This document shows, one piece after another, positions 1 to 19,466 of a DNA stretch of 64,000 nucleotides. This stretch comes from Balanoglossus misakiensis (Eukaryota; Animalia; Hemichordata). The stretch lies in assembly GCA_040954595.2 (NCBI GenBank), contig CM082592.2, forward strand, positions 3,736,735 to 3,800,734. Direction: 5' to 3'. Position 1 is the first letter of the stretch. The number at the start of each line of letters is the position of its first letter. Under the pieces are notes generated by a model. The model saw only the letters and a list, made by a program, of their open reading frames with translations. It was not told the origin of the DNA and did no database searches. The position numbers were made by a program, and so were the translations under genes.

Positions 1-1
1 C

Positions 2-475
2 GTTGTCCAAAATCTTGGTGAAGACAAAAAACTCGAGGCCTATTCATTAAACGTTCGTCCACTCGATACAAGTGTGTATGAAGACAACTTCAACCAGCAG
101 GTTCGCAACACTCTGTTGGGTAGTATCACGCTTAAAAATAACGGTGATCCTGGACGAAGACATTGGGGAAAGCACGGTGCGCACGACGGTGTGTCCGGGA
201 AGGAAAATGTGCAGTTGCTGGTTGACGCGTGCTCTCTGGCTTGGCAAGATTTTATAATAAATGCAGCTCTTGCCCCGTGGATTGAAAAAACGGGCGTTCG
301 TTTGATACCTAAAAGAAGTAAACGCATCGAAGACTTACATTCAATTATCCCTTTCATGAAATATATAAAGAAGGACAGATTCACGAAAATACTCGCAGAA
401 ACGCTCGACGTACCAATGGACGATTTTGATACGGGTGTAGAACAAAATTTGGATATATTTAAAGAGTTTGATTAA
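2..475 (+). CDS. Viral hypothetical protein, 5'-partial (frame open from base 2)
   Basis: Frame reads VVQNLGEDKKLEAYSLNVRPLDTSVYEDNF... with no stop from the window edge to TAA at 473-475. Confidence 0.7.
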   Translation, partial: VVQNLGEDKKLEAYSLNVRPLDTSVYEDNFNQQVRNTLLGSITLKNNGDPGRRHWGKHGAHDGVSGKENVQLLVDACSLAWQDFIINAALAPWIEKTGVRLIPKRSKRIEDLHSIIPFMKYIKKDRFTKILAETLDVPMDDFDTGVEQNLDIFKEFD

Positions 476-478
476 CAT

Positions 479-1372
479 ATGTTTATAGAAGTCAAAATGG
501 TCGACAGTGACAGACGGATCGTGTCCACGCACGACATTATTTCGAATCGGTTCCTGAGATGCCGATTGAAAATTTACTTGCCTGGTTTAGTCTTATCCAC
601 AACCGTTATCAGTTCCGTTGATATGTGGCGAATTGGAATGCGTGAAATGAAGAAGGTCATGGATCAACGTGGTAAAACGCTAAACAAGAATATCATGCAG
701 ATGACGAAGTGTCCTCTGACATATTTATCCCATGAATTTCGCGATAATGGCGTTAAACGCGAATATTCAAGGGTAATAGCTAATTATAAAACGAGGGAAC
801 GTAAGAGATTAGAGGCAAAGGGGATTCGCGCGCTTGTGCATAGATTAACAGAATCGACGTACAATGACAAAGAGTCAATCGCAGCTTTAAGGTCTGATTT
901 GACTAAAAGGGAACAGCGTATTTCGAGACTCGACCTTAAAACACACACACAAGCGCCAATGTTACCATCGGTTAACCAGGTATGTCAATGTGCAAAAGCG
1001 GATATCTTGTATGATGGGGAACAAATGCCACCGCGTGAAATTAACACTGGATCATCAGATAGTGAAGAAGAATATCAGACTGGTCACACCAGTGACAGCG
1101 ATGGATACAACCACGACAATGAAGATAGTTCGGATGAGGAAGACATTGACGGTGACAGTGCGTTCGCACCCACACATAGAGAAAAACTGTGCAGTATGGC
1201 CTTCTTGAGACACAACCCTTATGGGGTTGTAGGGTTTAACACAAGGCACGATGAAGAGAGGTTACACTGGTATAGGCTAGTAAAAAAGAACGAGAAAAAT
1301 AGGATAAACAGTGTTAAACATCTCAGTATACACGACGTGCGTCAATTATGGGCCAGAAAGCGTGTAAAGTAA
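479..1372 (+). CDS. Viral hypothetical protein with basic coiled-coil and acidic tract (start may be ATG 497)
   Basis: 297-aa ORF. TATTTAAA at 456-463 lies 41 nt before ATG 497, which has a good aaaATGg context. Confidence 0.75.
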   Translation: MFIEVKMVDSDRRIVSTHDIISNRFLRCRLKIYLPGLVLSTTVISSVDMWRIGMREMKKVMDQRGKTLNKNIMQMTKCPLTYLSHEFRDNGVKREYSRVIANYKTRERKRLEAKGIRALVHRLTESTYNDKESIAALRSDLTKREQRISRLDLKTHTQAPMLPSVNQVCQCAKADILYDGEQMPPREINTGSSDSEEEYQTGHTSDSDGYNHDNEDSSDEEDIDGDSAFAPTHREKLCSMAFLRHNPYGVVGFNTRHDEERLHWYRLVKKNEKNRINSVKHLSIHDVRQLWARKRVK

Positions 1373-1415
1373 ACTGTATATTAACGGGGTGGTTATGTCA
1401 ATGGCATGATTGACG

Positions 1416-1961
1416 ATGATCAAATATTTCGCGTTCTATTTGGCATTTGTGTGCGTCGTAAGCGGCGTTACAACCGGTTACGGCATGACATTGTTAGACC
1501 TTAGGAAGTGTACCAATGAAACAATTCCGTGGTACTGTGCAGACCATAGTTACTGTCCACCATGTAATGAATCTAAAACATATACGCGTGTTTGTTCTGA
1601 TATCATAACAATAGGAAAATCTGACGACGATCAGACTGTGTCTGTTGTCGGTAACATTTGCAACTGTACTTGCGGCAACATCACATGCGGCCGCATAAAT
1701 TCCACATTCCATTTATACATTCGACAGCCATCCGAATGTCAACTACCTGTAGATTGGAATGATTATCCATCTGTTGGTGATGATGTAACGCCCAATGACC
1801 GGTACGCACCAAAACAAGTTCAACAGAACGTGCATACGTCAAATGACGGCCGCATCAGTATCTGTCCAATGTTTGGAGTGAACACAGCTGATTCTCCCAT
1901 ATCTTCAAGGTCGTCATTGATAACAGTTATTCTCACATTGAGTGCGGTTGCTTTTCAATAA
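1416..1961 (+). CDS. Cys-rich secreted or surface glycoprotein with signal peptide and hydrophobic C-terminal tail (possible GPI signal)
   Basis: Signal peptide MIKYFAFYLAFVCVVSG; several N-x-S/T sequons (NET, NES, NCT, NIT, NST); tail LITVILTLSAVAFQ; AATAAA overlaps the stop. Confidence 0.75.
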   Translation: MIKYFAFYLAFVCVVSGVTTGYGMTLLDLRKCTNETIPWYCADHSYCPPCNESKTYTRVCSDIITIGKSDDDQTVSVVGNICNCTCGNITCGRINSTFHLYIRQPSECQLPVDWNDYPSVGDDVTPNDRYAPKQVQQNVHTSNDGRISICPMFGVNTADSPISSRSSLITVILTLSAVAFQ

Positions 1962-2380: not shown

Positions 2381-2944
2381 TCATGATTTCTTTTGTTTGT
2401 ACTTTTCATGTTCTTTGCATATTAACCGTAACTCGCCGCAGATTGACCTTAACAATCTAAGGGTTTCCATAGTTATCGTTTTTATCCCAGAGTCCGGATC
2501 ACATGCCTGTGTTTCTACCATCAACAGTAATGTTCGGAACAGCCGGATCTGTTCGGCGTGCAGACGCTCCGCCGATGGAATCACGTGTAAAACAAAATGT
2601 ATGTTAATTTCATCTTTTGTCAACCGCTTCAGGCTACATTTCAATGCATGCATGTCGGGTGATGACTCAGGAAAGGCGTTCGCGTAATCCGTCAAACATT
2701 CTTGAACATCGTCGACAAGGTTGGCATCTGGGACGTACCCTGATTCGGCATATTGTCTTTCAGCCCATGCGATGGGGTTAAGAGAAGGAGCGTTTCGTTG
2801 TTCGTTAGTGAGTTTAATCTTACATAATGGACAGGGGTTCTTATTCACTCCCATCCAATCCAGTTTGATCGTGGCTATTGGAGACAAATCGGATCGATTT
2901 GTACCGCCGTTTATCACGTCAATGAAGTCAATGCTACTGTTCAT
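2381..2944 (-). CDS. Viral hypothetical protein with putative split Zn site (CPLC ... HFVLH)
   Basis: 187-aa ORF with CxxC and HxxxH motifs and a helical C-terminus. Confidence 0.7.
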   Translation of the reverse strand: MNSSIDFIDVINGGTNRSDLSPIATIKLDWMGVNKNPCPLCKIKLTNEQRNAPSLNPIAWAERQYAESGYVPDANLVDDVQECLTDYANAFPESSPDMHALKCSLKRLTKDEINIHFVLHVIPSAERLHAEQIRLFRTLLLMVETQACDPDSGIKTITMETLRLLRSICGELRLICKEHEKYKQKKS

Positions 2945-3171: not shown

Positions 3172-3546
3172 TCAAAATACGACAAAATCTTTGTCATCAA
3201 GTATTAATTCTGTCCGGACATGCGTCTTTTGTAGGGGCTGGTCTATGCAATAATGTTCAGTTGTGGGACTAATGTGGCTTGAGGTAAACAGTGAGCTACC
3301 AAAATCCTCATCGATTAGTATGCTACTGCCGGCGTCGCTATTGTCAACGTCTGATGGGGTCGTGATACCAACATTTTCAGGCGGGTGTGAGTGGTCTGTT
3401 TTATCATAGTCGCCAACTAACGTGCTGTCATCACTGTCAGAGTCTGACAAGAGTTTGTTACCACCATCTTGAAAGGAAGACAGTTCGTCTGCATTTGGTG
3501 ATCTAGGCTCGTCGCCATGGTCCATGTATCCACTATGTTCAGACAT
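3172..3546 (-). CDS. Acidic Ser/Asp-rich hypothetical protein
   Basis: 124-aa ORF with biased composition, divergent from ORF 3614. Confidence 0.55.
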   Translation of the reverse strand: MSEHSGYMDHGDEPRSPNADELSSFQDGGNKLLSDSDSDDSTLVGDYDKTDHSHPPENVGITTPSDVDNSDAGSSILIDEDFGSSLFTSSHISPTTEHYCIDQPLQKTHVRTELILDDKDFVVF

Positions 3547-3613: not shown

Positions 3614-3835
3614 ATGAGCCAACAGGGTACTGAAGAGTCCCCTGCTCCCGTGCAGCGACCTCCTTCTTCGCCCAAATCTTCAAAATCACCTCTGTCTAAT
3701 GTCAGAGAAGCCGCAGATATCTTTATGAGGATGTTACAGATTACAGTGCTTAACGTAACCGATTCAAACCCTGAAGGCAACAACGAAAGCCATGACGACA
3801 GGAAGCACAAACAACTTGTATCTAGTCTCTCATGA
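3614..3835 (+). CDS. Small Ser/Pro-rich hypothetical protein, overlapping the next ORF by 44 nt
   Basis: accATG context; TATTTAA at 3571-3577. Confidence 0.5.
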   Translation: MSQQGTEESPAPVQRPPSSPKSSKSPLSNVREAADIFMRMLQITVLNVTDSNPEGNNESHDDRKHKQLVSSLS

Positions 3836-5312
3836 CTGTTCTTTGACACACATTGTTGGCACGCTCGAAGCACAATGTTCATTGGCGTGGCTTCGGTTCC
3901 TATACGAAAACAGACTGAGGCCATCGGCACCCAGAGAGACTGCCTCACTGACAACTGACTTATATGACATGGGAAAAACAATTGACAGGCACTATGTTAA
4001 TGTCTATCCACCTCTATCGGAAGATATTGCGCAAACACTACAACCCCTCCTACTCTGGTGCAAAACTCAACTCTCATTTCTGGAGCTGGTGAAACAAGGT
4101 CAACTACGGGCGACCTTGAACGGGTTAGCGAAGGGCCGTTGTACCGACCTGAAACTATTCGACAAGACGCTAAATGAACACATCCGTTTCCAATGGGCAG
4201 AAAAGGAGACAGATGAACTCTGTCAACTCGCAGATGTGGTGATGGATTTTTTAATAATGTTCGGAACCATGCCCGCCCTTCCAAGAGACGTTATACACTC
4301 CTCATATGCCTGTTGGGAATGTCGTTTCGAAAATGCTTTACTGCCAAGAAATAGGGAGGAATTAGAGGTTGGTTGTTGCCATTTATATCGCGCGGTGTCA
4401 TGCTCGGAGCAAGAAGACGACCCTATACCATGCCAAGCAACCAATAAACCGGAAATTATCGATACATCGGACGTTTCTGTATATCCGCTGGATGTACAGA
4501 TGAGAGTTAGACAAGTGGCCCGTGAAAAGCAGCGACAGACACTCATACTACAAGAGATTGAAAAAGAAATCCAGACGTTAAACGTTCGATTGGAGTACCA
4601 ATTGGCGCCGAAAGTACTATCTCTCGACGTTTTCAACAAGGTAAAACGAGTGTGCGATGGTTTGGAACTAAGAAAGTCAGCGGCAGCTTTTTTCACAGAT
4701 ACCACACAACCAGTCCATATAGACAATGCATGTTGTCGCAGATTGATGTATTTGATGGAACAGGTTACATGGAGCGAGATGCTACAAAATCGTGCGTTAG
4801 ATCTATACTTTTGGTTGACGATGGACCCTCTTACTCTAAGTAATAGCTCGTGGAGACTCGAGACCACATATAGAATGTGGAATGATGCCGCGGGTATGGA
4901 CATTTTTAAAGTATGTACATTTATAGACCAACTGAAAAAAACCCGCCCAGCCGACGTACTACGCGATGAAGGTGGTCCATGCAACCTATTATTCCGAAGT
5001 TGTTACATGCAGTGTCTACTGAAGGAACTAGGACAAATCCATCACTTTCAAGCCCCTACAGCACACCGTGCAGATACCTGGGATAATACTTCCGACGGCA
5101 TGATATTTTACTATGATAATGACTCGTTTGGTCTGTACATTACTGGTCGCGGTATACATTCTTTCCAGTACAAAGAGTCCGCAATCGCATTCACCGTGTG
5201 GTTATATCATACCACAATGAAAAATCAACCTATACATAGACATGTTTTTCAAGGCTGTCCACTAAAACCGGAACAACCGCTCTTTTATAGCGTACCCACC
5301 ACAAAGTCATAG
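3792..5312 (+). CDS. Viral hypothetical protein (506 aa) with central coiled-coil
   Basis: Long ORF followed by AATAAA at 5436; no family recognised. Confidence 0.8.
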   Translation: MTTGSTNNLYLVSHDCSLTHIVGTLEAQCSLAWLRFLYENRLRPSAPRETASLTTDLYDMGKTIDRHYVNVYPPLSEDIAQTLQPLLLWCKTQLSFLELVKQGQLRATLNGLAKGRCTDLKLFDKTLNEHIRFQWAEKETDELCQLADVVMDFLIMFGTMPALPRDVIHSSYACWECRFENALLPRNREELEVGCCHLYRAVSCSEQEDDPIPCQATNKPEIIDTSDVSVYPLDVQMRVRQVAREKQRQTLILQEIEKEIQTLNVRLEYQLAPKVLSLDVFNKVKRVCDGLELRKSAAAFFTDTTQPVHIDNACCRRLMYLMEQVTWSEMLQNRALDLYFWLTMDPLTLSNSSWRLETTYRMWNDAAGMDIFKVCTFIDQLKKTRPADVLRDEGGPCNLLFRSCYMQCLLKELGQIHHFQAPTAHRADTWDNTSDGMIFYYDNDSFGLYITGRGIHSFQYKESAIAFTVWLYHTTMKNQPIHRHVFQGCPLKPEQPLFYSVPTTKS

Positions 5313-5495: not shown

Positions 5496-6092
5496 CTAAA
5501 CTCTCTTCTTAGTGTCGCGAATGACTCTCCAGTTTACATCCAACTGTTTGTGAACATAAGGAAAAGTCCAGTCTTCACTTTTAATATTTTCGTCCCTGAT
5601 TGTAGTCATCGCTTGAATAAATTCCTTATATTCTCTCCGGATAGATTCTATGGGATGGTCTAACTCCATGACAGTTGTGCGACCCCAAACAACAACCATG
5701 TTCTCTAGTTCCTTTAGTCTACTTCCTGCTTTGATGTGCATACTCATTTTCTTTTGTGGAGATTGGTCTGAATTATTTAGTATCATCACAAGTGACAGCA
5801 CGATCGAGAAAACGGACAACTGGAGGACAAACAGACATTGAAACGGTCGCTGATGGGAACTTACGTAGTCATTGAGTACGCTTCCGACATTTATCATACA
5901 TCCACTGATTATTATTATCGATATAAATCTCAAAAACCTTGTCCAAGTCTCGTATCGGTCAGCGCTCAGATAGTGCGATACACAGTGAAAATGCAACGAA
6001 TGTGTAAAGTTTTCCGCCATATCGCGGAAATTCCTTCTGACATCTAATGCGTCGATTGGCCGATTTAAACCACAATGGCTTGAGTTTTCCAT
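5496..6092 (-). CDS. SLATT-like two-transmembrane protein (198 aa from ATG 6092)
   Basis: SHYLSADRY, then TM1 (FLRFISIIIISG), TM2 (LFVLQLSVFSIVLSLVMIL), then MHIKAGSRLKELE; this fits the SLATT pattern H..aa.rY-TM-TM-H..ag..y..L. Poly(A) signal just past the stop. Confidence 0.65.
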   Translation of the reverse strand: MENSSHCGLNRPIDALDVRRNFRDMAENFTHSLHFHCVSHYLSADRYETWTRFLRFISIIIISGCMINVGSVLNDYVSSHQRPFQCLFVLQLSVFSIVLSLVMILNNSDQSPQKKMSMHIKAGSRLKELENMVVVWGRTTVMELDHPIESIRREYKEFIQAMTTIRDENIKSEDWTFPYVHKQLDVNWRVIRDTKKRV

Positions 6093-6197
6093 AATTATTA
6101 TACAAACTGTACTAACGTTCGCAAATTGTGACCGCGTTCTTCTGTTTTCTCGCACGCATGGCTGGGTACTTGGTGTGCCTTTAATATCAATATATCC

Positions 6198-6470
6198 GTG
6201 GAAGGCATCTATGCAAACATTGACTTTGAAGACAGACTCTGTGAAATATGTACAGGAGGTGTGGAGGATGAATTTCATGTAATATTTTTATGCCCATTGT
6301 TTCAGAGCTTAAGATATTCATTACCACACGACAACTCCGAGTCTCTTTATGAAGAGAAATTTGTAACACTGATGAGGTCAAAGTCGCCAGCAGTGTTAAG
6401 AAACCTTGGCAAATTTGTACATGTCTATATCTCGTCGGTAAATCACCATCTTACATGTACTTCGATATAA
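6198..6470 (+). pseudogene. Fragment resembling the C-terminal CCHC zinc-knuckle region of a non-LTR retrotransposon ORF2
   Basis: GIYANIDFEDRLCEICTGGVEDEFHVIFLCPLFQSLR...FVTLMRS...LRNLGKFV matches the typical LINE tail RLC..C...vEDE.H....Cp.y...R. No in-frame ATG precedes the motif. Confidence 0.6.
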
Positions 6471-6477
6471 CCTTAAG

Positions 6478-7020
6478 CTATGCGAACCCCTTTACAACCT
6501 GAGCGACTTTATCTTCTAATTCACCCAGGCGCTGTCTCAAATTGTTTGTTTCTTGGCCGTGTACAGTACGGTGATTATGTAATACCCGAGCATTGGATAT
6601 TGCATTGTACCTATTATACAGTGCCATCAAGACAACGGACATCATATCTCCTACGTGAATACACAATCTGGCGTGGAAATCAGTTTCGGATATTTGTCGA
6701 AATCTTAAATCGAGCAAAGATAGACTGGCTAGACGAATAAAAGATTCCGCCAGAAAATATGAAAAGGTATCCGTTGAGTCATAAACACGAGATAGAATCC
6801 CCACCAATGTCCACTTTAGCCCGCAAAACAAAGCGGCAAAAAACAATTGGAAATTAATTCCGACTGAAGATATATAGTTATAACGATCATCCCCAAAAGT
6901 CTTGGCGATACTACCGTTGACTTCAAGATGGGAAATAGACAGATAAGTTCCTATTATATAGGCCAACGATGCAAACACTAACGTGGAATATTTAGCAAAT
7001 CGACTTTCTAACCGTCGCAT
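6478..7020 (-). CDS. Multi-pass membrane protein with C-terminal coiled-coil
   Basis: 180 aa, three to four hydrophobic segments, tail LRQRLGELEDKVAQV. Confidence 0.7.
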   Translation of the reverse strand: MRRLESRFAKYSTLVFASLAYIIGTYLSISHLEVNGSIAKTFGDDRYNYISSVGINFQLFFAALFCGLKWTLVGILSRVYDSTDTFSYFLAESFIRLASLSLLDLRFRQISETDFHARLCIHVGDMMSVVLMALYNRYNAISNARVLHNHRTVHGQETNNLRQRLGELEDKVAQVVKGFA

Positions 7021-7085: not shown

Positions 7086-7727
7086 ATGTGGTTATTTCGG
7101 AACAAACGAGCAGAAAGCAAGGAAGAAGAAGCGCGTAAGAAACGCATTGAAAAACAGAGGGAGATCGCATTGCTGATCAAATCAAACGAACAGAAAGCCA
7201 ACGACCTAGGTAAAAAAATTGTGTCGCTAGCGCTGGATAATACCGCCCCCACGCGTCGCTTTTCTACAGCCTACAAAGAAAAACTAGCCGCAGTGAATGC
7301 CACACTCCTCGAGAAAGTAACCACTGGATTAGTCAAGTTAGAAAGTCTGTCAGTGGATATCCAACTAGAAGATCTCCGCGTCCAACAAAGTCGTTTTCAA
7401 CAGTCCCGATATAAACTACTTCAAGAGGAAGAACGAGTGTTGGCGCGTAATTTGAATAAGTGCCCACCAAAGAGAATTAGAGCACAGTCCAATCGTTTAA
7501 ACCGACTACGAGAAGCCAACCGTTACAGAGACGAAATTATACAAGACTTGTACGAAGACAGTGATGAAGACTGTCAAGATTCGGCCTTTTGTCAAGCCGG
7601 TCTCGAAACTGTTGAAGAATTGCGCAATCAATTCACGGAGTCATCGTTGCTGGAGGCACCTAACGTTGTTTTAGGCAGCCTATCTTTAGAAGACAACGAT
7701 ACAGCAACACGCACCAAGCACAGTTAA
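7086..7727 (+). CDS. Coiled-coil protein resembling ESCRT-III (Snf7/CHMP family)
   Basis: 213 aa; MWLFRNK N-terminus; basic helical N-half; acidic DEIIQDLYEDSDED...VEEL...LLEAP C-half. The ORF is solid; the family call is tentative. Confidence 0.55.
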   Translation: MWLFRNKRAESKEEEARKKRIEKQREIALLIKSNEQKANDLGKKIVSLALDNTAPTRRFSTAYKEKLAAVNATLLEKVTTGLVKLESLSVDIQLEDLRVQQSRFQQSRYKLLQEEERVLARNLNKCPPKRIRAQSNRLNRLREANRYRDEIIQDLYEDSDEDCQDSAFCQAGLETVEELRNQFTESSLLEAPNVVLGSLSLEDNDTATRTKHS

Positions 7728-8239
7728 TTGCGACTATTAAAATAAAACCTCCTCAATTAGTTCTAACTTTTATTGACTCACGCATTTACTTCACACCGTG
7801 ATGTACACGCCCCACAGCGAACAGAAGACAACGATACAGCAACTCGCACCAAGCACAGTTAATTGCGACTATTAAAATAAAGCCTCCTCAATTAGTTCTA
7901 ACTTTTATTGACTCACGCATTTACTTCACACCGTGATGTACACGCCCCACAGCGAACAGAAGACAACGATACAGCAACTCGCACCAAGCACAGTTAATTG
8001 CGACTATTAAAATAAAGCCTCCTCAATTAGTTCTAACTTTTATTGACTCACGCATTTACTTCACACCGTGATGTACACGCCCCACAGCGAACAGAAGACA
8101 ACGATACAGCAACTCGCACCAAGCACAGTTAATTGCGACTATTAAAATAAAGCCTCCTCAATTAGTTCTAACTTTTATTGACTCACGCATTTACTTCACA
8201 CCGTGATGTACACGCCCCACAGCGAACAGAAGACAACGA
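7688..8239. repeat. Tandem array of 4 x 135 bp plus a 12-bp partial copy
   Basis: Unit starts AGAAGACAACGAT at 7688, 7823, 7958 and 8093, with a partial at 8228; copies are near-identical. Confidence 0.97.
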
Positions 8240-8374
8240 GGAAGAAACACGCAAGAAACGCATTGAGAAATAGAGGGGCCATAAAATTGTTGTCGATAGT
8301 GCTGGATAATGCAGCCTCAACACGTAGATTTTCTACAACATACAGAGAAACACTAGCTGTCGTGAATGCCACAC
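8238..8374 (+). pseudogene. Degenerate, internally deleted copy of the 5' part of ORF 7086-7727
   Basis: AAGAAACGCATTGA and GCTGGATAAT...TTTTCTACA...GTGAATGCCACAC match ~7120-7305; peptide LDNAASTRRFSTTYRETLAVVNAT versus LDNTAPTRRFSTAYKEKLAAVNAT. Confidence 0.85.
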
Positions 8375-9618
8375 CGTGGGGTACACATCCCACAGAGGCC
8401 ATCTTCAAAAGCAGTCAAATTGTAACATTCTTGTGACCCGCCTCTGCAAACGCGGATGGTTGGAAAATCTGGCTGATCAATGTATAATGCCACACCATGA
8501 CTAGGATATAACAGCGGTATTTTTACCAATCTATATGAATGACAGAGACCACACCTCGGAGTTAACGTGTCTTGTTCTAAATAGTACGTATATCCCGGAG
8601 CTCTGTTTTTTATATGCAAACAGGTTAGCACGCCGTAGCAATGTCGACAAAAAATAACGCTGGTGCGGTGAGCGATTGTAAACTGGACCTCTTCGCGGAC
8701 ATTGATCGCGCGTTTTAGTTTGGCGAGAATCAATCTATCCATGTCGTAAAAGAATTTAACCTGTCCCGCTCGGCCGTGTAGTAATAGTATCGCCTTGATA
8801 AGCCTCTTTTGCCACAGGCCTAACCGACGTATGAGACCGTTTACTGATTTTGAATTGTAATCAGTCAACTGTTGTCGAAGAAGGTGCAGGCGTGTCAAGA
8901 AGTGTCTATCGTTTGCAGATTCTCTATGGAAAGCCACGAGATTCAATGGCCAAGACCATACCATTCGCTCATAAACATGTTTGAGGGTGGTAGGTAGATG
9001 GGCGGCCGAAATCCGAGGCATCCTATTCAGAATAATTTTACATAATTGTCTATGGGTGGGTGTCCTGAGCTTGGGAATACATCGTTTCAATTTTGCTTTG
9101 AAAGAATCAGAGTCACACGTGCTTAGATGAAGGACAGTCGAGAGTCTCTTCACCGAACAAACATTCCCTTGGTAGTTGTGGAACAATGAGCCACTCCATT
9201 GCATCGTTGGCTCGGCTAGCTTGTCATAAAAGTGGATTAACACGAGTAACCTAATCCAGTTAGGATGTTGCAGGCACCATTCAGTGGTTAACGACAACCG
9301 TGTTATACGGTTGTGTACCCGCTGCAATATAGAAAGAATATCTGTCCATTGATTTTCTCTCACTAGATTATTTAGTCCGTGCGTGTCTTTACAATCAATC
9401 GCAAACGTCACAAAGTCATTTACAAAATCCCTCGTATTGGGTGTCTGCACTCCGGGGAAAGTGATGCTTGCGCGATTGAAGCAAGACTGGAATAAGTCCA
9501 TACCTAATGCGCGGGGGGGAGCTAATGCGTCGATTTTATGAATGTCGTGTGTTAAATATGTCATACACAGCGTGCGTGTACAGTTCAAAGTTCCCTTATG
9601 TGAGAACAGAAATACCAC
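8353..9618 (-). CDS. Protein with four C-terminal Cys pairs, similar to beta/gammaherpesvirus UL49/ORF66/BFRF2 late-transcription factor (true start may be ATG 9564 or 9501)
   Basis: IFCRHC, RCGLCHSYRLVKIPL, VCRGGSQEC and LCGMCT follow the order and context of the four Cys pairs recalled for KSHV ORF66; size is similar. Confidence 0.55.
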   Translation of the reverse strand: MVFLFSHKGTLNCTRTLCMTYLTHDIHKIDALAPPRALGMDLFQSCFNRASITFPGVQTPNTRDFVNDFVTFAIDCKDTHGLNNLVRENQWTDILSILQRVHNRITRLSLTTEWCLQHPNWIRLLVLIHFYDKLAEPTMQWSGSLFHNYQGNVCSVKRLSTVLHLSTCDSDSFKAKLKRCIPKLRTPTHRQLCKIILNRMPRISAAHLPTTLKHVYERMVWSWPLNLVAFHRESANDRHFLTRLHLLRQQLTDYNSKSVNGLIRRLGLWQKRLIKAILLLHGRAGQVKFFYDMDRLILAKLKRAINVREEVQFTIAHRTSVIFCRHCYGVLTCLHIKNRAPGYTYYLEQDTLTPRCGLCHSYRLVKIPLLYPSHGVALYIDQPDFPTIRVCRGGSQECYNLTAFEDGLCGMCTPRCGIHDS

Positions 9619-9869: not shown

Positions 9870-10832
9870 TTAAATTAACTGCACCGCTAAATATATACTC
9901 ATGAATATGGAAGAACAAATACATAAAGGGTAAACTACCGACGACCACCGCCACAGGGCAGACTTGGACACATCAGGAATGACTTCAAATGTTAGGTCAA
10001 CCGCCGGATCTTTGTAAGCAGCATCGCATTCTGGGGGTTCGCAACAACTTAAGTATATTGTCAACGTTGAATGATCGTCACTCGCCCAGTCTTCGACCAG
10101 ACAACAAGTATAATTGTACTCGTAATAAGTGTACAAAATCTCGTGTAACATGCATAACCGTTTGTACAAATGATACGTCTCGAAAGAATCTTGCAATTTC
10201 GCAACTATCTTATAACAATGAGTCAAATGACCAACTGGGTCATCCACACTGTCGTATCTGGTGATCTGTCCATTCACACAGTTTTCGATAGTCTGGTACA
10301 TGTCTGTCCCTTTCATATCTTCTTTCTCTTGACTATAATAACATGTACTCGCCCTTGTGTTGAAATCTGCTTCCAAGCGTATCACCAACCTCCTGTATAA
10401 TTTTGACTTTAGAACTGTTACATCGAAGCACATACTGTAGGTTCTTTCAAACATTTTCAAAGAATAGACTAGACTTCCTATGTCACATCTGTCAACTTGT
10501 CGCTGATCGCTACTACACATTATAAAATACATGGTATACAGACCGTCTTCGTTTGCACAAAGAGAGTGATCTCTTCCCGACAACAATTTTAAATTGAACG
10601 GGTGCCGGGCCAGTCCAAATATCAAAACGTCCATTATATCACGGTCTGATACAACGTCGGTTTCCGGAAGTTTTTCAAACCAGACGGGCCATGTTGACAC
10701 GCTTAAGTTAGATTTGGCAACGTGTACATCGTCTAACATATATTCCGTGTTCGGATGTTGTTTAGATTGGGAATCACTTGAAACTGCGTCTGAAATCGCA
10801 TAGGCTCTATTCGACCACGCAGGGTTGTCCAT
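9870..10832 (-). CDS. Membrane protein with C-terminal transmembrane anchor
   Basis: 320 aa ending in VVYPLCICSSIFMSIYLAVQLI; Cys-rich body. Confidence 0.75.
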   Translation of the reverse strand: MDNPAWSNRAYAISDAVSSDSQSKQHPNTEYMLDDVHVAKSNLSVSTWPVWFEKLPETDVVSDRDIMDVLIFGLARHPFNLKLLSGRDHSLCANEDGLYTMYFIMCSSDQRQVDRCDIGSLVYSLKMFERTYSMCFDVTVLKSKLYRRLVIRLEADFNTRASTCYYSQEKEDMKGTDMYQTIENCVNGQITRYDSVDDPVGHLTHCYKIVAKLQDSFETYHLYKRLCMLHEILYTYYEYNYTCCLVEDWASDDHSTLTIYLSCCEPPECDAAYKDPAVDLTFEVIPDVSKSALWRWSSVVYPLCICSSIFMSIYLAVQLI

Positions 10833-11031: not shown

Positions 11032-12357
11032 TTACAGGCAACAACACAGCGATGCAAGCGGTGAACACAGGTCGTTACACAATTGTTTAGCCTTAGAAGG
11101 AAATTGTTGATGAATGTCTTTAACTATGGATTTTTCAACCACAAAATGTATAGGTTCCCTGGACGATTTTATCCCAATATCCTTTTTTTTTATTGGTTGT
11201 AAATTGGCCATGTCCTGAGACGAGGGTTTACAAGTCTTGTATGACGTCAAAGACACAACATTATCTATATGATCCAAAAGGCTACCGTTGTTGTTTTTGT
11301 GTAATATTTGTGCGTGTGCATCATCTTGCTCGAAAAGATAGAATGTTACCGACGAAGAATAAATGTCACTTTCGTGAAGATGTGCACGGTCTGGTCCGAT
11401 TTCAAAATGTTTTTCGATGACTATTGCGACTCTATCATTACAGTGGTTTTTCATCGCCCTTAACACGGACGGTTGCAGTTGCTGCAGACGCAACGAATCT
11501 TTACGGCTGAAATTCCGTGGGGTCAGAGGATCATCCAAAACAGAGGTTGTGGCGGAACACATGACTGCAACGACTTGTTTTAACAGAGGCAGTAAACCGT
11601 CTTCCGGTGACATTAGGCGATGGATGTAATTTCTGTACGCAGACCGAGTGATGAATGGGTTATTCGTAGACATGCATACTTCATGAATAAACCTCTTTAT
11701 CCGCACATACAATTGATCAAACTCTATATATTTTGATTCTTGGGTGATACCAGCGATTATGTTTTTCACCAGAGCAAACAATAGTTGTAGATGTCTTTCC
11801 AGACAACTTATTGCAAATAATGCTGAATAAAAATTGGCCGACAACCACTGTGGTGTAGATTGAATCCAGAAAGGGTCGTCAAAGTCACTGCGTGTACTCA
11901 GTCCATGGCCCGCGAAAGTTTCCACGTCCGTTCTACACTTGACAGCACGTGGTACTTGTAAATGTTTCAGCGAATTCTCGATGGTTACCTTCCATTTTCT
12001 CAACCTCGCATTGTTTATAACATCCACCGTAACGAACGAATGGCATATTCTCCGCAGTGTCCTCATTAATATTTCGTAGAAAGGGTTGTCACTAACATAC
12101 GTAACTCCGTCAAATGTCCATGAAAATACGTAGTAATCAAACCGTTCATATTGAATGTATTCCTCCCAATTCCCTTTCAACGTGTCGTCAAATAGCGAAG
12201 TTATAAGTTCTTCATCCTCGACGTCCTTTAACAGAATGTAAACATCTCGCCTATCCCGACAAGTTCCTAAATTGATAATACTTTCCCACTCTTGACAGTT
12301 TTCTTTGCAAGGAACAGGGCCTACTATGAGTTCGGGAGGTTGTTTGACAATATCCAT
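11032..12357 (-). CDS. Viral hypothetical protein (~441 aa)
   Basis: Long ORF with first ATG at 12357; no family recognised. Confidence 0.8.
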   Translation of the reverse strand: MDIVKQPPELIVGPVPCKENCQEWESIINLGTCRDRRDVYILLKDVEDEELITSLFDDTLKGNWEEYIQYERFDYYVFSWTFDGVTYVSDNPFYEILMRTLRRICHSFVTVDVINNARLRKWKVTIENSLKHLQVPRAVKCRTDVETFAGHGLSTRSDFDDPFWIQSTPQWLSANFYSALFAISCLERHLQLLFALVKNIIAGITQESKYIEFDQLYVRIKRFIHEVCMSTNNPFITRSAYRNYIHRLMSPEDGLLPLLKQVVAVMCSATTSVLDDPLTPRNFSRKDSLRLQQLQPSVLRAMKNHCNDRVAIVIEKHFEIGPDRAHLHESDIYSSSVTFYLFEQDDAHAQILHKNNNGSLLDHIDNVVSLTSYKTCKPSSQDMANLQPIKKKDIGIKSSREPIHFVVEKSIVKDIHQQFPSKAKQLCNDLCSPLASLCCCL

Positions 12358-12544
12358 AGTCAATTCAAAGACTCTCAAAGCAGTCTGTTAATGGTCTCAT
12401 ATTGACGCAAAGTAGAATTACGGCTATGAATAAAAGAATTACTGTTAAATTGATTGTTTTGTCCAAAACGTTTTGAATCTGATATCAACGTGACAGGCGA
12501 ACCATGTCGGGCGAAACTGGCTGATATCAGTAATGTTTACAGTT

Positions 12545-12870
12545 GTTGCTGATTGGTTGAACCATCTTCAATCATCTGCTCACTTGCAAAACAGAATAAC
12601 AAACTGAACAGTATCGGGAATTTCAGAGTTTGGGTGGGAAATTTTCCAACAACATTGTATTGTAGACACACAGAGACACGATTAGAACAGAATATTGAAG
12701 GAGATTGATTATTGATGCGTGTGACATTGCAGAGGGCGTTCAGTTGACTTCAAATACACGGTAGCCACCATGCAAATTTAGTCACCGTTTCCATGGAAAG
12801 TTGAGATGAAGCCAATCACATATTTTGGCGGGGTGGCCGAATGATCGGGGAATACACTATAAAAAAAACA
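12545..12870 (+). promoter_or_regulatory. Pol II-type promoter region with kappaB-like sites, CCAAT and TATA
   Basis: GGGAATTTCA at 12616-12625, GGGAAATTTTCC at 12636-12647, CCAAT at 12812, GGCGGGG at ~12827, TATAAAA at 12858. Confidence 0.4.
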
Positions 12871-13196
12871 AGACAGTGAACACCCATGTGTTTTCTTTAT
12901 TTACATACATTTAAATGCGAACTAAAGACCCCGAACCCAGATAGCCCTTCTATAGACCGGACTTTGAAACAGCCATGCCCCTAATTGTTCTGACCCTAAA
13001 AGATGTACAAGTTGGCACGTTTGTCCTTGAATTAGCTCGTGGATGACATCGACTGTAGTATCATGTCGCGAGTTCGACAGGTATGTTCACGGTGTACCTA
13101 CTTAAACGAGTAGGTTTAATTAAAAGTCACCACAACGCTCAACTACTTTCTACGTAAACGATCGGCGTTCATACTGTTCGAGAAGCTATCAGCAAA

Positions 13197-13634
13197 ATGA
13201 CAGAACGGGCCTCTGTTCGAAACGGACAAGTATTTTATGTGTGCACAACGCTAGACTGCGAAGCTGTCGGTTTCAAATCTCTCGATGGACTCTGTTGTAG
13301 GTGTTACGCACTGAAGGCCCCGAACCCAGATAATCCTTGTACAGACCGGACTTTGCAACAGCCACCGGGTAATGCCACCCACTGTTCTTACCCTGCTTGT
13401 TCCAACGTCGCCGTGTCGGAAAATATCCTATTATGCCGTGTATGTCTAACCATCTTAGACGAAAAGGGAAAGACACCCGGCAAAGAAAGACGCATGTCAA
13501 CAATCAAAGAATCCACCACAGAAGACAATCCCTCTGTACCCAAAACTCTGTGCAGGTTTCCGGCTTGTACCCACTTCGGCAACGAAGATTGCGTGGGATA
13601 TTGTAACGAATGTTATAAAGTGTTGACGAAATAA
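13197..13634 (+). CDS. Protein with three A20-type zinc fingers; the last is TNFAIP3 ZnF7-like
   Basis: Three C-x4-C-x11-C-x2-C motifs; the last reads CRFPACTHFGNEDCVGYCNEC. aaaATG start; AATAAA at 13695. Confidence 0.9.
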   Translation: MTERASVRNGQVFYVCTTLDCEAVGFKSLDGLCCRCYALKAPNPDNPCTDRTLQQPPGNATHCSYPACSNVAVSENILLCRVCLTILDEKGKTPGKERRMSTIKESTTEDNPSVPKTLCRFPACTHFGNEDCVGYCNECYKVLTK

Positions 13635-13779
13635 TAGGATTTGACGCTTCCATAGTTTCGTTGTGGACACACTTGACAGCATTCAAAAACTGGCAATAAA
13701 ATGACCAACATAACTAATATTTTTTTCGTCTATTGTCTTTTGTAGTAAGGTCGCAATGCTTTCCCAGCATGCACGTGTC

Positions 13780-14655
13780 TCATTTGATCCCCGTGCATGA
13801 CTTGTTAAAGACATGTCTTCGACGACAGTATGTGGACTTCCCATATTTATGTGCTGTTATCTTCGGATTTAGTTTGTGAAGATGGTATTTAAGTTCGCAG
13901 TAAAATAATGCAATTTCTGATTCCATAATTTTTAGAACAGTCTTCAGTAGTGGCCAACATCTCGTTAAAACAACCACTAATATTATTCCTTTATACAAGA
14001 GAAATTCGAACACGTATTGGAGGCCAGCCACGGCGCAAATATCGGTCATGACAGTAGGGTTGCAATCTCCACGAAGTGACACCCAAAAAAGTAACTGAAG
14101 TGGGTAGTACATGACATATCTCGAAAGTGTAATACTTTTGTACCACTGCAAATCTGCACACAACCCACCGGCCCCGACACCTCTCTGTATCCAATAAATG
14201 ACATCTTGCCACCAATTGCGGATGTTCGCGCAACCACCACGTGTGTTGAGAGCTGCCATGGCATCGAATATGTCCATATGCCAAGCGATTTCCGAATGAA
14301 TAGGTTTTCCAGAAAAACAATGTCCTTCAAAACACCTTTTGAATTTCTCAAAACCTACGGCTAAAGGATCTATGATTCCTCTCAAATCTTTCACAATAGC
14401 GCTCAAAACAACACCTAAACCACCAGTGATTTCCTTGAACAACTTCACGAGAAACAATCCTATGATTGAAACGACAGCTGTTGCCAGCGCGATGTACAAA
14501 TATGAATTCCAAGGTGCAAATCTGTAAAGAGTCCGACATACAGCTTTTGTGAGATGCCAAGCGGAAAGCTGGTGTTTCACAGTATCCTTATGTCTGTATA
14601 TCTGAGCCTCGTACTGGTACACGACTTTATCGTCTGCCTTGTGCCCTAAAACCAT
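13780..14655 (-). CDS. Cys-containing membrane protein with N- and C-terminal hydrophobic segments
   Basis: TMs LYIALATAVVSIIGLFLV and FLLYKGIILVVVL; first ATG at 14655; head-to-head with the terminase. Confidence 0.75.
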   Translation of the reverse strand: MVLGHKADDKVVYQYEAQIYRHKDTVKHQLSAWHLTKAVCRTLYRFAPWNSYLYIALATAVVSIIGLFLVKLFKEITGGLGVVLSAIVKDLRGIIDPLAVGFEKFKRCFEGHCFSGKPIHSEIAWHMDIFDAMAALNTRGGCANIRNWWQDVIYWIQRGVGAGGLCADLQWYKSITLSRYVMYYPLQLLFWVSLRGDCNPTVMTDICAVAGLQYVFEFLLYKGIILVVVLTRCWPLLKTVLKIMESEIALFYCELKYHLHKLNPKITAHKYGKSTYCRRRHVFNKSCTGIK

Positions 14656-14727
14656 GGCGCCCAGTGGTATCTCAAGATATAATATATTTATCACGTTATT
14701 AATGTGTAAAAATATTCTCTACCGGTC

Positions 14728-15432
14728 ATGGAGGCAGACAAGCTCAGCCCATTTGTCAGAGATGCCCAGAGAATGGACGCTCTCATTACACAGTGTAGAC
14801 AACAACAAGACCAACTTAGGGGTGTGTTTTTAAGAAAACACGCGTACAAGGAAAACTATATGTTTTCTCGCGTTGAAGACGTAGACGCGAGACTGTCTTT
14901 AATGAAAAGGGCTATACAAACCATCCGATTGTTATGCAAGGGGAAACAATTTACGTTCGAACCTTTCCAGGAGGAGATGTGTAGGGCCATAATGTTAAGT
15001 CGCTTACGACATTTTTTTGGTGAGGAATCTAAAAAGTTTTTCTTGCCTGTGATGAAATACCTAGGTATAATTTCAGCACACTTTGACGAGCGAACATGCG
15101 ACAGAATCAACCTATCGAGAGTACGTAGCCAAATAGAAGAATATAACCATAAGTTTATCGTTGTCATGGTACCGAGACGCTCTGGTAAAAATGCCACCGC
15201 GCAAATTATTGCCACGACACTTTTATTGTACGAACCAAATTGTTCAATCATAGTTTGGGCTCAAGACATGAACTGTGCGTTACTGAACAAAGAAGGTATA
15301 TGTGAAAATCTATCGCTGCTCAAGACAATATCTGACATACCATTCGATTTTCGCGTTTCCGGGGATACGGTGACAGTCGTAAGATGTGATGGTAGTAAAG
15401 GCACTCTGCGCGTAAAGCCTAATTCGCCTAAT
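14728..15432 (+). CDS. DNA-packaging terminase ATPase subunit, exon 1 (herpesvirus UL15/TRM3-like)
   Basis: FEPFQ adenine-binding Q motif; hydrophobic strand plus Walker A FIVVMVPRRSGK; IIVWAQ strand. Ends KPNSPN|GTAAGT, a phase-0 donor at 15433, 81 codons after the Walker A Lys. Confidence 0.85.
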
Positions 15433-16009
15433 GTAAGTGTAAACACATTCCATCTACTATTATGTATTTGCATTGTATCCAGTTTACATTTTGTGTTCAA
15501 TATTTATTTCATTATTGCGTACACTTGGATGGTCATCTCAATGTAGTTGTATTTGTAGAGGCCTATGGCAACTGGCCATGGCGAAAAGATAAAGGTGCCA
15601 CGCTCGACACTCTATCACTATTTGATTTACGTTTGTGTATGGGTTCGAATGGCACAAAAGTCACAGGACGCAAATGTTTAGATCACAGTGTATCATTTTA
15701 TTGCGTGTCATACCGATATACAAAGTTAGTACGTACAATTAAACGCTTTCTTAAAGAGTCAGTCAGTGTACTAATCTCAAAATGTGGTCGCTATCCATTC
15801 ACACATGGATCATGCTTCCTTTGTCCCAATGATCGTAAAATTCATCCCATCACACCTGTTTAGATGTGTACAAATCAGCCGTCGAGAGTTCACAAATACT
15901 ATTCTACTTAATCGCCATATAATGGTCACGAGAGGGCGCCGTCGCTTGCTGTTTTGTTAGTACAGCACAGGTCAATCAAGGTCATCTATTGTGTTCTGTC
16001 ACAGTCCGT

Positions 16010-18082
16010 TCAATTGGCAAATGCGAGGCAATTCATTCTTCGCGCTTGGCTGGCACACGACACTGCGTCAGTGGGTAGTTTAAGATGATCATATATTTCA
16101 TCAAATCGACGTTTAAACGACTCTTGCATCACCGCTACATTTCTTTGGTGCATTTCCATTTGCCTGGCCTGGGACGCGACCGTCTGCGTTAACTCATCTA
16201 CTTTCGAATTGAGCTGTGCCTTATCAGACTCCAATTGGACTATGCGCATTTCTCGCTCTTTTAGCATAGCCATTACATTCTCCGCGGCTGCTGATTGCTC
16301 CCTACAGTTTTCCAACTCGGAACGGAGCGACTCGATAGCAGCTGCTTGTTCCGCACTATGTTCTTGGTGACGTGAAATGGCATTGTACAGACAAGCGCCC
16401 TGTTTCGAGTTGAGAAACTGTACGATAGCTTGAAAGTTCTCATGACTATTCCTTGTACGGGGGCTGTCTTTCACAAATTCTTTCAATAGTTGACATTCTA
16501 TAGTGGCGATCGTGATATCGCGTTCTGTTTTCTTGAGTAGGCGACTACCGACCTTTTTCGACATGCCTGATGTGATCTCGTCAACGCCGAATACAACAGT
16601 GGCGCCTGCCAACACCGAGGACATGGCAGTGACGTAGCAACCTAACACAGTATAGCCGAATTTATCATACTGTGTGCACAAGTCGACGCGTGAAGAGTTG
16701 GAATATTGCGGTTTTGAGCGAATGATTCGGGCCACGGTGGAAACAATCGCACTATTCTGACATGGTTCGTTGTTTTGACCGGATAATCCTAACGGACACT
16801 TGAATTTAGTTCCAGATCTGCTTTCTATCAGTTTTATTGCGATTCGTTTTGTTGGGCCAGACGATTCGATTACTTCAATGGTTGGGTTGTCCGGGATAAT
16901 TGCGTCGTTAGAAACGGTTACATTTATCACTTTGCAATCTTCTAAGGGTTTCATAATCTTAAACCAATAAATTGTCGCTGGATACACTTGTTCACCAACG
17001 TGCATGTAGTACAAATTGTTCTTTAATTGTGGGGGCAATTTATCGCAATCTCCATACAGCACAGGCATCCCAACCACAGCCGCGGCAGAATTTATGTCAT
17101 CCTCTGTCGACAGTTGAATCAAAGGAGGGGTTTTCGAGTCCAAGAAATCGCATACATAATTCTTGTTCCGTTTACAGTCTTTCATTCGCTTGCGCTTGGC
17201 AGTTACCGAAGTATTGTCTCCCAACAGCGAAAACTGATCGTTTCCACATTGCACAGTAATAAGGTTCCAGGCCTCTTTCGGAGATAGCACGTGATAATGC
17301 CCGTCTTTCATTAAAGCGATGCACGGAAAATCATTGCTTTGACCTTTCTGTAACATGTATGATATAGGTGTTCTGATTGCGTCGTGAAACTCTTTCATAC
17401 AGTCATTATCGCTTGTGTATAATGACAGAATAGCACCAAAATTGCCGCGAATGGTCAAATGGCGTTCCGCGTCGTTCGATTGGTCTGGTATTAAATCCTG
17501 AGTATAAGACATCGGACTTTGTGCGTCGAGCGGGGGGTGAATTTCAGCGGCAGATGCGCGAATTTCCTCTGGAACTTGATAACTGGTGCATGGATGAGAA
17601 ACTGCAGTGGCATTCTCTGACGGCCCCGGGTTATATTGTTCAGTGTGGTTGTCGGATCCACCGTGCCGGTCCGCGTGATAGAACGGAGAAGAGTCTATCG
17701 AACTGGGTTCATTATGGACTAAGAATTCGGTCGTTGCCTCTGTGGCATTCACGCTCGGGGCCTGACGGGTATGATCTGATACGCCTAGCAACAAATCTAT
17801 GATGTTTGGAGACTCGTTCACCATTTCGGCCGAAAAATCTTGTTCAATATCGTCTCCAAATAAAAAGTCTTGGACGGTGGTATAAGGCTCATCGCTCGAT
17901 ATATCAGGAGCCATTTCTACATCACAAGCCTGTATGACAAAAAATGAGGAAATGTATTAACAGTTGTGCGAAGACACAGTGGGTTAACAAACAAAATGCG
18001 TTTAATGTGTATATGTACTCACGGGAATTTGAACCTGTCGGAGTACCGTCTGTAGAAAATCACTATAATCGGTTTGAGCCAT
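16010..18082 (-). CDS. Spliced hypothetical protein (~659 aa; exons 18082-18023 and 17929-16010) with C-terminal coiled-coil
   Basis: 93-nt GTGAGT...TACAG intron joins MAQTDYSDFLQTVLRQVQIP in frame to ACDVEMAPD; TATAAA 42 nt upstream of the ATG. Confidence 0.8.
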
Positions 18083-18491
18083 CTTCAATAATAAGCTGTA
18101 CTCGTGGTTGACGTTCGCTTTATACATGTGCAACGTGTGTTCACATCAACATGCATGGGTTAAATTCATGTATGTTGTTGTGTATCCATCCCAGTTTACG
18201 TGTAGGCCGTCGCGATCACGTGACAAAATACGAGGTCATTATTACCACCACAAGCTACATATAAGCTGCCGTGACCACGTTATGTGTATGTATTTGTATG
18301 TATAAATTACTTCATGTACGTGATGTGTAACTATAAAGGTGATGTAGTTACATCGAGACACCATCTTAGTACACACACACTGCACAACTTGCATAAAATG
18401 TAGTTCATACACGTATACAAGCACGGTGTTTTGTATCAAAAATAGTTTAATAACAGCTATTCTACAATGACTTTAACAACCACTGTAAGTA

Positions 18492-19381
18492 TCATTCTGT
18501 CAAGTTCATTTTTTCGTCTAGGCCAGGGACCATCTTACACATTTCGGATAATGCTAGAGCTAATATTCTGTTTTCCAGTTCTATATTGGATATTTTATCT
18601 ATGGGGTTGTTTTCAAAATCTGTAACGCTTTCGTCATCATGCAACAACAATTTGAACCACAAAATAATCGCTACGTATGAGTCACCTTCGAAATTGATGA
18701 CGGATATTGAGTCATTTGCATAATCAGATATATCACATAGTACCGGCATTCCAAACTTCGCATACAACCACCTGTTGGATCCTTCAACAAAACGGTCTGT
18801 TTTAAGTCTGGGTGTCTGTTCTACAAAATTACCTAACGCACGTGGGTTTGTAGTTAACCCAAGTTCACGAAGGATATCATGGCTATTTTGCAAAACCATG
18901 GATTCTACCGCGTCTAAATAATGCATGGCTTGTACACTGCCATCTTCCCTTAGGAAAAGGGTTGAACACCTATCAACACCAGGAGTAGCTAAAGCTTCCA
19001 GCGAAACAGTACACGCACTGGGGACTGATTGCCAAACTCCTCCACGTTGTTTATAAAAAGCTATGTATTCTTTGAAACACGACCCGTGTGCTTGTATCGT
19101 TTTTATTTTATTTAACAGTATCATTGGATGGTGATTTTGCGACCTCCGGTGTGTTGATTGGTGAACATCCTCAGAGACGACCTAAACAGTTGCATTGATA
19201 GAGAGGAAGATAGAAAGAGTGGTTTAGTGGAAAGTAATATTTAGTCAAATGTTGGGCAACCCGATTTACATGTAGAATGACATGTACGTACCTCAGTTGT
19301 ATTTTCAGTAGATATATCCCGGGATGAATCGTCGGGTTCATGAATAGGCGTTTCCGTATGTTGTTCTTGGATCACACGAAC
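18492..19381 (-). CDS. Spliced paralogue of the 16010-18082 gene (exons 19381-19292 and 19181-18492); first exon not found
   Basis: GTACGT...TTTAG intron at 19291-19182 keeps the frame; a further acceptor TTTTGTAG lies at 19382; shares DG, TPxL, GMPVL and YxAxIxWFK motifs with its neighbour. Confidence 0.75.
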
Positions 19382-19466
19382 CTACAAAAAAACAAACAAA
19401 AGTGTAACATTTTTAACATTGCTTGGGACCACTCCGCTTAATGGTTAGCACACACACACACAATCG

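Follow-up and report, generated by a model that had tools for sequence, protein, structure and literature searches.

The 64,000-nucleotide stretch analysed here (contig CM082592.2, positions 3,736,735 to 3,800,734 of the forward strand; the whole of it is called the window) carries in its left part a compact block of open reading frames (ORFs) that includes one exon of a herpes-type terminase. We think that the left ~21 kb probably represents the right-hand end of an integrated virus, young and multi-copy, which is likely latent and likely borne by an invertebrate and comes from an unnamed lineage on the alloherpesvirus side. Exon 14728-15432(+) is the ATPase exon of a herpes-type terminase, the first half of this DNA-packaging motor, and the gene is split just before the Walker B region. 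On this terminase the element would belong to the Herpesvirales, and it is filed under no named family. Sources marked "in part" below are cited for a part of their text.

The terminase ATPase exon

The exon carries the Walker A motif VPRRSGKN and matched the PHROG_9 terminase family (E 8e-4). Its AlphaFold2 (AF2) model had a predicted local distance difference test (pLDDT) score of 87. The BFVD structure search with this model gave 18 matches at E<=1e-3, all 11-19% identical and 15 of them herpesvirus entries, and herpes terminases outranked phage terminases. Ranid herpesvirus 3 (E 1e-8), white sturgeon herpesvirus 2 ORF62, and Ranid herpesvirus 2 ORF68 were the top three, at 14-18% identity, followed by gamma-, malaco-, alpha-, and betaherpes entries. 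The solved chain that matched best, out of 48,161, was pUL15 of herpes simplex virus 1 (HSV-1; 6m5r, Z 14.8, root-mean-square deviation 13.7, 198 aligned residues), and the next chain reached Z 9.6. Model residues 15-235 aligned with residues 108-342 of the 6m5r chain, the last residue of the model falling on residue 342; UL15 exon 1 we take to be 343 residues long.

The exon ends at a phase 0 donor (AAT|GTAAGT), which lies 88 aa beyond the beginning of Walker A. The names of the reference genomes (cyprinivirus-size, alloherpes-size, orthoherpes) are inferred labels. The distance from Walker A to the donor was 84-87 aa in the parsed orthoherpes-size loci and 95 aa in one alloherpes-size locus. 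An orthoherpes Walker A was present in 56 IMG/VR loci, 31 of them parsed by their end motif (30 with a GT and one with a GC donor, at 86-87 aa from Walker A) and 25 unparsed. In the alloherpes-size locus L071 a GTGAGT donor aligns with that of the window exon. Both the herpes-type terminase exon and the UL15-position intron proposed in a first-pass annotation of the letters are borne out by these matches. The orthoherpes-size genome L058 (IMG/VR) has an apparent GC donor (GCAAGT) at its terminase intron.

Orthoherpesviruses, alloherpesviruses, and the majority of mirusviruses are described as having a terminase split near Walker B; trans-splicing has been demonstrated in mirusviruses (PMC12768974, PMC13595911, both in part) and is proposed for alloherpesviruses. 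Mollusc and amphioxus herpes terminases are intronless (PMC2994540, in part), and the split therefore argues the element out of the Malacoherpesviridae, yet it is no mark of a vertebrate virus. The same annotation had spoken of traits typical of vertebrate herpesviruses; in the orthoherpes sense that wording is not supported, as the split is shared so widely and the exon is far closer to alloherpes-size than to orthoherpes references.

Lancelets and Capitella are known to carry endogenous malaco-like viruses (PMC12373286, PMC5552708, both in part). They are the best-known invertebrate integrants and likewise lie among repeats (PMC12373286, in part), and a clam herpesvirus terminase was fifth in BFVD. 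Ostreid herpesvirus 1 (OsHV-1) ORF109, however, was only 18th, at 11% identity, and the Branchiostoma floridae terminase, 31% identical to OsHV-1, is intronless (PMC2994540, in part), whereas the window terminase is split. A malacoherpes-like endogenous virus is largely refuted by the split gene and is extremely improbable.

An unnamed terminase family and its second gene

A phmmer search over 1.84 billion proteins gave 23 matches, 22 of them genuine (22-66% identical, none with a Pfam family); the remaining one, the repeat protein P0022, was excluded from the family. The profile search gave 42 matches, 28 of them new, with no named protein, and none of the 20 terminase clusters looked up was named beyond "hypothetical". 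All 50 aligned homologues end the exon at the same column with a V directly after (49 VS, one VC), and GT(A/G)AGT stands at the exon end in all eight related loci (L002-L009). The family falls into three groups: 8 rows belong to that of the window, and the other two have 3 and 40 rows. Contigs that carry some of its clusters measure 144 kb, 335 kb, 1.3 Mb, and 5.0 Mb. No family member was recognised in IMG/VR, where the searches gave one phage locus (L001), four cyprinivirus-size genomes, and 11 other loci.

A second gene accompanies the exon. In related loci a homologue of the 187-aa protein lies within ~2 kb of the terminase exon, and with a profile of five homologues (L002, L003, L004, L006, L008) ORF 2381-2944 came top among 794 window frames (E 4e-4). 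Its score of 15.4 bits exceeds the 10.0 bits reached by the best of 2000 shuffles. Judged from sequence, this CxxC...HxxxH gene is a second gene common to the wider unnamed lineage, and one might guess at a terminase-associated role for its product. Its ESM Atlas matches were RING clusters below 0.9, and it had no PDB match. No convincing viral match came from the single ORFs or from the remaining 10 locus families or artefact groups. L002 also carries Bcl-2, EGF, ankyrin, and RING genes, and the wider family therefore likely infects animals.

Loci L002 (1076-15257), L004, and L008, of a distant clade, have a conserved block around the terminase exon with at least five unnamed families in shuffled order. 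In L002 a 525-aa ORF (10746-12323) resembles an XPG/FEN-type nuclease by eye and has no Pfam match.

Placement among herpesviruses

The profile of the eight-member window clade scored 47-53 bits for the four cyprinivirus-size references vs 5-18 for the 12 orthoherpes references, and HHalign gave E 9e-13 and 4e-8, respectively. With the orthoherpes profile the window exon scored 9.8 bits vs 253-333 for the profile's own members. The trees were built from 24 of 51 family rows, 12 of 56 orthoherpes loci, and four alloherpes-size rows, three of which end early at an intron. In the 40-row tree the window clade had support of 100/99, and the three unnamed groups joined at 93/91 and stood separate from the two reference sets. 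When a phage outgroup was added, they sided with the alloherpes rows at 91 in the Shimodaira-Hasegawa-like approximate likelihood ratio test (SH-aLRT). The closest named relatives in these tests are likely the alloherpesviruses, with the unnamed groups on their own branches, and the terminase is not close to UL15/UL89 in sequence. It shares with Orthoherpesviridae UL15/UL89 the position and phase of the exon end, while its profile scores there are near background, and in the window, unlike in that family, no exon 2 was found within a few kb downstream.

Alloherpesviridae gave the best structural and profile matches, and share with the window exon the LEPFQ...PRRxGK layout and, in L071, the donor at the aligned place. 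The element might accordingly be a divergent member of that family proper, or a transposon-virus fusion like Teratorn, the alloherpesvirus-piggyBac fusion of medaka, whose elements are known in fish (PMC5601938, PMC10175614, both in part) and are multi-copy and intact (PMC5601938, in part). Teratorn, compared here by description, is like the window element in its kept ORFs, its multiple copies, and the likely integration. Identity to alloherpesviruses is, however, 14-21%, the element stands on its own tree branch, none of the 42 profile matches or 20 clusters is a named protein, and the host is likely an invertebrate and no fish. In the alloherpes-size loci L066, L069, and L072 the frames break after Walker A, whereas the window exon has no extra introns. 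At the right end there is neither a transposase frame nor a clear terminal repeat, and the sole TTAA+CCTT site in 18-26 kb (TTAACCTT at 22793) lies inside a repeat block. We regard this explanation as decidedly unlikely.

Mirusviricota, also compared by description, have a split, trans-spliced terminase near Walker B, and outside two orders most mirusvirus terminases are of this kind, some at alloherpes positions (PMC12768974, in part). A mirusvirus-related element instead of a member of Herpesvirales would also be favoured by the make-up of the comparisons, as BFVD may lack mirusviruses and the tree holds no mirusvirus rows. However, the family exons are uninterrupted and uniform, unlike those of intron-rich mirusvirus orders, and both the host and the genes carried by L002 look animal-like, whereas mirusviruses are reported from protists; the mirusvirus host survey left out Metazoa (PMC10827195, in part). 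None of four family motifs occurred in 10 supplement files of PMC12768974, a weak point since these files may contain no sequences. No mirusvirus-type capsid protein, RNA polymerase, or terminase was recognised in the window. A mirusvirus relative is improbable.

Window layout

Stop-to-stop frames of at least 150 aa cover 0.75 of positions 1-19440 vs 0.10 of the remaining window, and the compact ORFs described earlier are clearly present. The view that most of them lack a recognisable family also stands: none of the 17 left-hand ORFs passes the curated Pfam cut-off (the nearest is zf-A20, with 21.1 vs 21.6 bits) or the NCBIfam cut-off. Rfam over 1-26000 and ARAGORN gave no match. GC is mostly 0.38-0.45, and both GC and the observed/expected CpG ratio (CpG o/e) are nearly equal in the left and right parts of the window. 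Microsatellites of at least 20 bp number one left of 19440, none in 19440-24321, and 11 further right.

On the right, ordinary animal DNA adjoins as the first-pass annotation had said, with GAS2-like CH, GNAT, sulfotransferase, and EGF exons. The flank has a CpG o/e of 0.7-1.2, with no depletion. CpG depletion is typical of vertebrate genomes, and an invertebrate host is therefore likely. The GAS2-like exon was 49-63% identical to 30 compared homologues (chelicerates, an echinoderm, a mollusc, and vertebrates). A lancelet host, considered at first, was not confirmed by the tree of this exon, whose rows include no lancelet.

Right boundary and splicing

Contigs from three public runs of one sample (X1, X2, and X3) were compared over 10000-29500, and the stretch 14500-24000 is present in all three. 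The junction between virus and host had been placed at ~19.45 kb. Depth shows no step at 19440 (160 in X1 and 453 in X2 for bin 19114-19764), and that position has to be given up: element depth continues across it, and a four-exon gene is predicted over it. An X1 contig over 20240-21291 remains at element depth (156.5) and extends into two copies of a repeat, the family of which has a depth in the thousands. Bin depth is 3,000-540,000 (X1, X2) from ~21.3 to 24.3 kb, and unique host depth starts at 24322. The element runs to at least 21.3 kb, and its right boundary is likely inside the 21292-24321 repeat block.

For the four-exon gene, one joint was found, in X3 only and absent from X1 and X2. 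It runs from 19179 to 19290 (CT..AC, depth 136) at exons 3/4 and removes 19182-19291, a GT-AG intron of the minus strand. Exons 2 and 3 are related 90-nt exons with the common donor GTACGTAC and agreement in 9/30 residues, a value reached in 2/5000 shuffles. Splice signals carry the gene through the 90-nt exons to an ATG at 20960 behind the TATAAA. The X3 contig 15768-17928 ends where the acceptor of the 634-aa ORF is predicted, and 30 further letters of it do not align there. From this we infer that X3 behaves like an RNA library; it has no cover over most of 10-15.2 kb and gives no evidence on expression there. Another joint, 12141-23872, had 21 letters on one side and was disregarded as a likely repeat match.

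A 126-nt direct repeat (98% identical, 19467-19592 and 19895-20020) lies inside a predicted intron of the terminal gene. At 23872-23999 there is a short, very-high-copy element with many flanks and a depth above 1 million at 23903 (X1, X2), likely a miniature inverted-repeat transposable element.

Copy state and probable integration

Median bin depth of the element vs the unique flank was 146 vs 58 in X1 and 473 vs 121 in X2. The depth check proposed earlier thus gives an element at 2.5 (X1) and 3.9 (X2) times the unique flank. Among the best 40 of 199 entries, four letter differences are listed in 10-19.4 kb, vs dense differences in the flank. Integration into the host chromosome is likely. 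As to the direct joining to animal DNA that had been claimed, the two are joined in the window and element-depth sequence is contiguous with high-copy repeats, while no listed contig spans the repeat block.

The assembler could have been led by shared repeats to misjoin a free or episomal virus of the same lineage with host DNA. The unspanned boundary in the 3-kb repeat block would fit such a misjoin, as would the long open ORFs and a depth that is above that of the host and depends on the run. The depth is, however, only a few-fold above the host, and the element-depth sequence is contiguous with copies of a high-copy repeat, including one that sits in a predicted intron of the terminal gene. 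The 5.0 and 1.3 Mb contigs, moreover, carry one of the unnamed homologue clusters, as expected from integration. We hold a misjoined free virus to be unlikely.

Proposed mode of action

The element likely works like an endogenous herpesvirus. The virus would rest in the host chromosome among host repeats, in several near-identical copies; host polymerase II would transcribe its end genes (the four-exon gene and the 634-aa gene), and the host would splice the transcripts. As the ATPase exon is oriented towards the element end and no partner exon was found downstream, a whole terminase mRNA would need trans-splicing, or else cis-splicing after the viral genome has been excised from the chromosome and its two ends have been joined. 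Either route would tie packaging to the lytic state. No integrase, transposase, or telomeric repeat was found at the right end; in 19.3-24.4 kb there was no tandem telomeric repeat, no open frame above 98 aa, and no frame of transposase length.

Several points weigh against an integrated, alloherpes-side virus. Placement is based on ~228 columns, half a gene, and the approximately unbiased (AU) test rejects neither the window with the orthoherpesviruses (p 0.086) nor the window with the cyprinivirus-size genomes (p 0.097). The tree holds no ictalurivirus, batrachovirus, Teratorn, malacoherpes, or mirusvirus rows, and nesting within Alloherpesviridae or nearness to mirusviruses is outside its cover. 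The six-frame motif scan found no Walker B/nuclease exon in the window, though a divergent exon could escape it, and an element truncated after the ATPase exon may be the plain alternative. General Pfam, PHROG, and NCBIfam scans gave no capsid, portal, or polymerase match among the window ORFs, most of the element lying beyond the window. Contig depth is not copy number, and the unequal ratios of X1 and X2 are what an episomal or free virus would give too. The three runs come from one sample, may be the source of the assembly, and are not independent; X3 is not on record as RNA; and no contig among those listed bridges 21.3-24.3 kb. Finally, in the tree of the GAS2-like exon the window row groups with none of the 30 rows, vertebrate ones included.

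Comparison with known systems and meaning

BelcheriHV-1, scaffold 217 of B. floridae, and the Capitella elements resemble the window element in being herpes-like blocks in invertebrate assemblies, repeat-flanked and with few variants. Coverage of BelcheriHV-1 is ~0.7x that of the host (PMC12373286, in part) vs 2.5-3.9x for the window element. Other described non-malaco herpes-like invertebrate sequences, compared by description, are placed between Ortho- and Malacoherpesviridae by polymerase or terminase. In the literature we found no description of an alloherpes-side invertebrate lineage; starfish and ribbon-worm elements may be this group, and Rosani et al. 2023 (Front Mar Sci) and a bioRxiv survey may contain it.

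We tentatively propose a wider picture, which is possible though far from assured: within Herpesvirales the alloherpesviruses would have a sister branch at family level, with at least 50 unnamed exons. Its members would be intact, multi-copy, transposase-free invertebrate proviruses with an ancient split terminase whose orientation forces trans-splicing or circularisation and with a conserved CxxC-HxxxH small-terminase-like partner. Named invertebrate herpesviruses are malacoherpes-like with an unsplit terminase. If the proposal is true, the "fish and frog" herpesvirus lineage would be older than vertebrates, and a split-terminase invertebrate lineage on the alloherpes side would close the gap that separates mirusviruses from vertebrate herpesviruses. 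It would become testable how old the terminase intron and Alloherpesviridae are, and besides Teratorn and telomere integration there would be a second route into the germline. With the 50 unnamed exons as a ready marker, the group can be sought in animal assemblies.

UL49/ORF66 and TATT-box tests

The 403-aa ORF had been read as a UL49/ORF66-like factor. Its Cys pairs (306/309, 338/341, 373/380, 391/394) form four CxnC motifs in the same order as those of ORF66 (295/298, 341/344, 393/399, 424/427; bioRxiv 10.1101/728139, in part), and the likeness is limited to this order. Profiles were made from 12, then 24, of 26 UL49/ORF66 loci, and both were negative. With the 24-sequence profile the ORF ranked 30th of 1001 against shuffles, HHalign gave a probability of 1.2%, and at least 6 of 100 column shuffles outscored it. 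It had no Pfam match at E<=10 and no PDB profile match; its best ESM Atlas value of 0.80 is a lead only, and its AF2 model (pLDDT 37) makes the Foldseek list meaningless. The UL49/ORF66 reading is not upheld.

The TATT boxes fared no better. Strict TATTWAA stands upstream of 1/16 ORFs (p 0.31-0.48; background 0.02-0.04 per site), and a relaxed TATT form, the best of six patterns tried, before 4/16 (p 0.015 vs intergenic DNA), a weak signal. The earlier suggestion of a possibly undescribed Duplodnaviria lineage related to herpes- or mirusviruses keeps its core, a herpes-like and apparently unnamed element on its own tree branch, and loses these two supporting arguments.

Other features

The features of the window are collected in Table 1.

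Table 1. Features of the viral block, the repeat block, and the host flank.
Feature	Position	Strand	Basis or remark
ORF open at window 5' end, 157 aa	2..475	+	No Pfam, PHROG, NCBIfam, or PADLOC match
297-aa ORF, basic and acidic tracts	479..1372	+	No family at cut-off
181-aa Cys-rich ORF, hydrophobic ends; likely secreted or surface protein	1416..1961	+	No Pfam family
187-aa CxxC...HxxxH protein	2381..2944	-	Profile match to terminase-neighbour gene of relatives
124-aa acidic ORF	3172..3546	-	Open reading frame
506-aa ORF	3792..5312	+	No Pfam, PHROG, or NCBIfam family
260-aa ORF, weak SLATT/two-transmembrane-helix likeness	5496..6278	-	NCBIfam, PADLOC
180-aa hydrophobic ORF, likely membrane protein	6478..7020	-	No family at cut-off
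213-aa charged ORF	7086..7727	+	Snf7/ESCRT-III likeness by eye, unconfirmed
135-bp tandem repeat, 4.1 copies, 99% matches	7688..8239	+	Spans 3' end of ORF 7086-7727
403-aa protein, four C-terminal CxnC motifs	8353..9564	-	Two unnamed homologues, 55% and 43%
320-aa ORF, hydrophobic C-terminus	9870..10832	-	Open reading frame
441-aa ORF	11032..12357	-	Open reading frame
145-aa Cys-rich ORF, A20-like zinc finger	13197..13634	+	Pfam zf-A20, E 2.9e-4, 21.1 bits vs cut-off 21.6
291-aa ORF, hydrophobic segments, likely membrane protein	13780..14655	-	Head-to-head with terminase exon, 72-bp gap
Terminase ATPase exon 1, 235 codons, Walker A	14728..15432	+	Phase-0 GTAAGT donor at 15433
634-aa ORF (16010-17914), C-terminal coiled coil	16010..17929	-	Predicted acceptor just upstream, AG ending at 17930
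Four-exon gene	18492..20960	-	One joint seen, three predicted
Predicted exons of four-exon gene	20960-20901, 20757-20668, 19381-19292, 19181-18492	-	All phase 0, TATAAA upstream
High-copy repeat block, likely host interspersed repeats	21292..24321		Depth
GAS2-like CH-domain exon	43899-44564	-	Pfam
GNAT	47091-47969	-	Pfam
Sulfotransferase	51831-53213	+	Pfam
EGF exons	59-62 kb		Pfam

Genes for host manipulation had also been suggested. ORF 5496-6278 matched NCBIfam SLATT_4 (E 2.9e-5, 24 bits vs a cut-off of 55) and a PADLOC 2TM effector (E 0.006), and ORF 13197-13634 is a candidate modulator of ubiquitin or NF-kB, as its zinc finger suggests. The A20-like and SLATT-like proteins are candidate host modulators by weak, sub-cut-off matches, and nothing firmer came of the suggestion. 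Just upstream of the A20-like gene there is a 58-nt diverged duplicate of part of it (12918-12975 vs 13307-13364).

For ORF 7086-7727 the Snf7/ESCRT-III reading was not confirmed, with no Snf7 match in Pfam or PDB at E<=10. After the 135-bp array, a diverged copy of the 5' end of this ORF lies at 8223-8374 and runs into the stop of the opposite 403-aa gene. The region 7086-8374 is a local duplication.

In the host flank, a perfect 147-nt inverted repeat with a 148-nt spacer (48644-49085) is likely a young non-autonomous DNA transposon, and the EGF-exon units are tandemly duplicated ~1.9 kb apart at 59193-62673.

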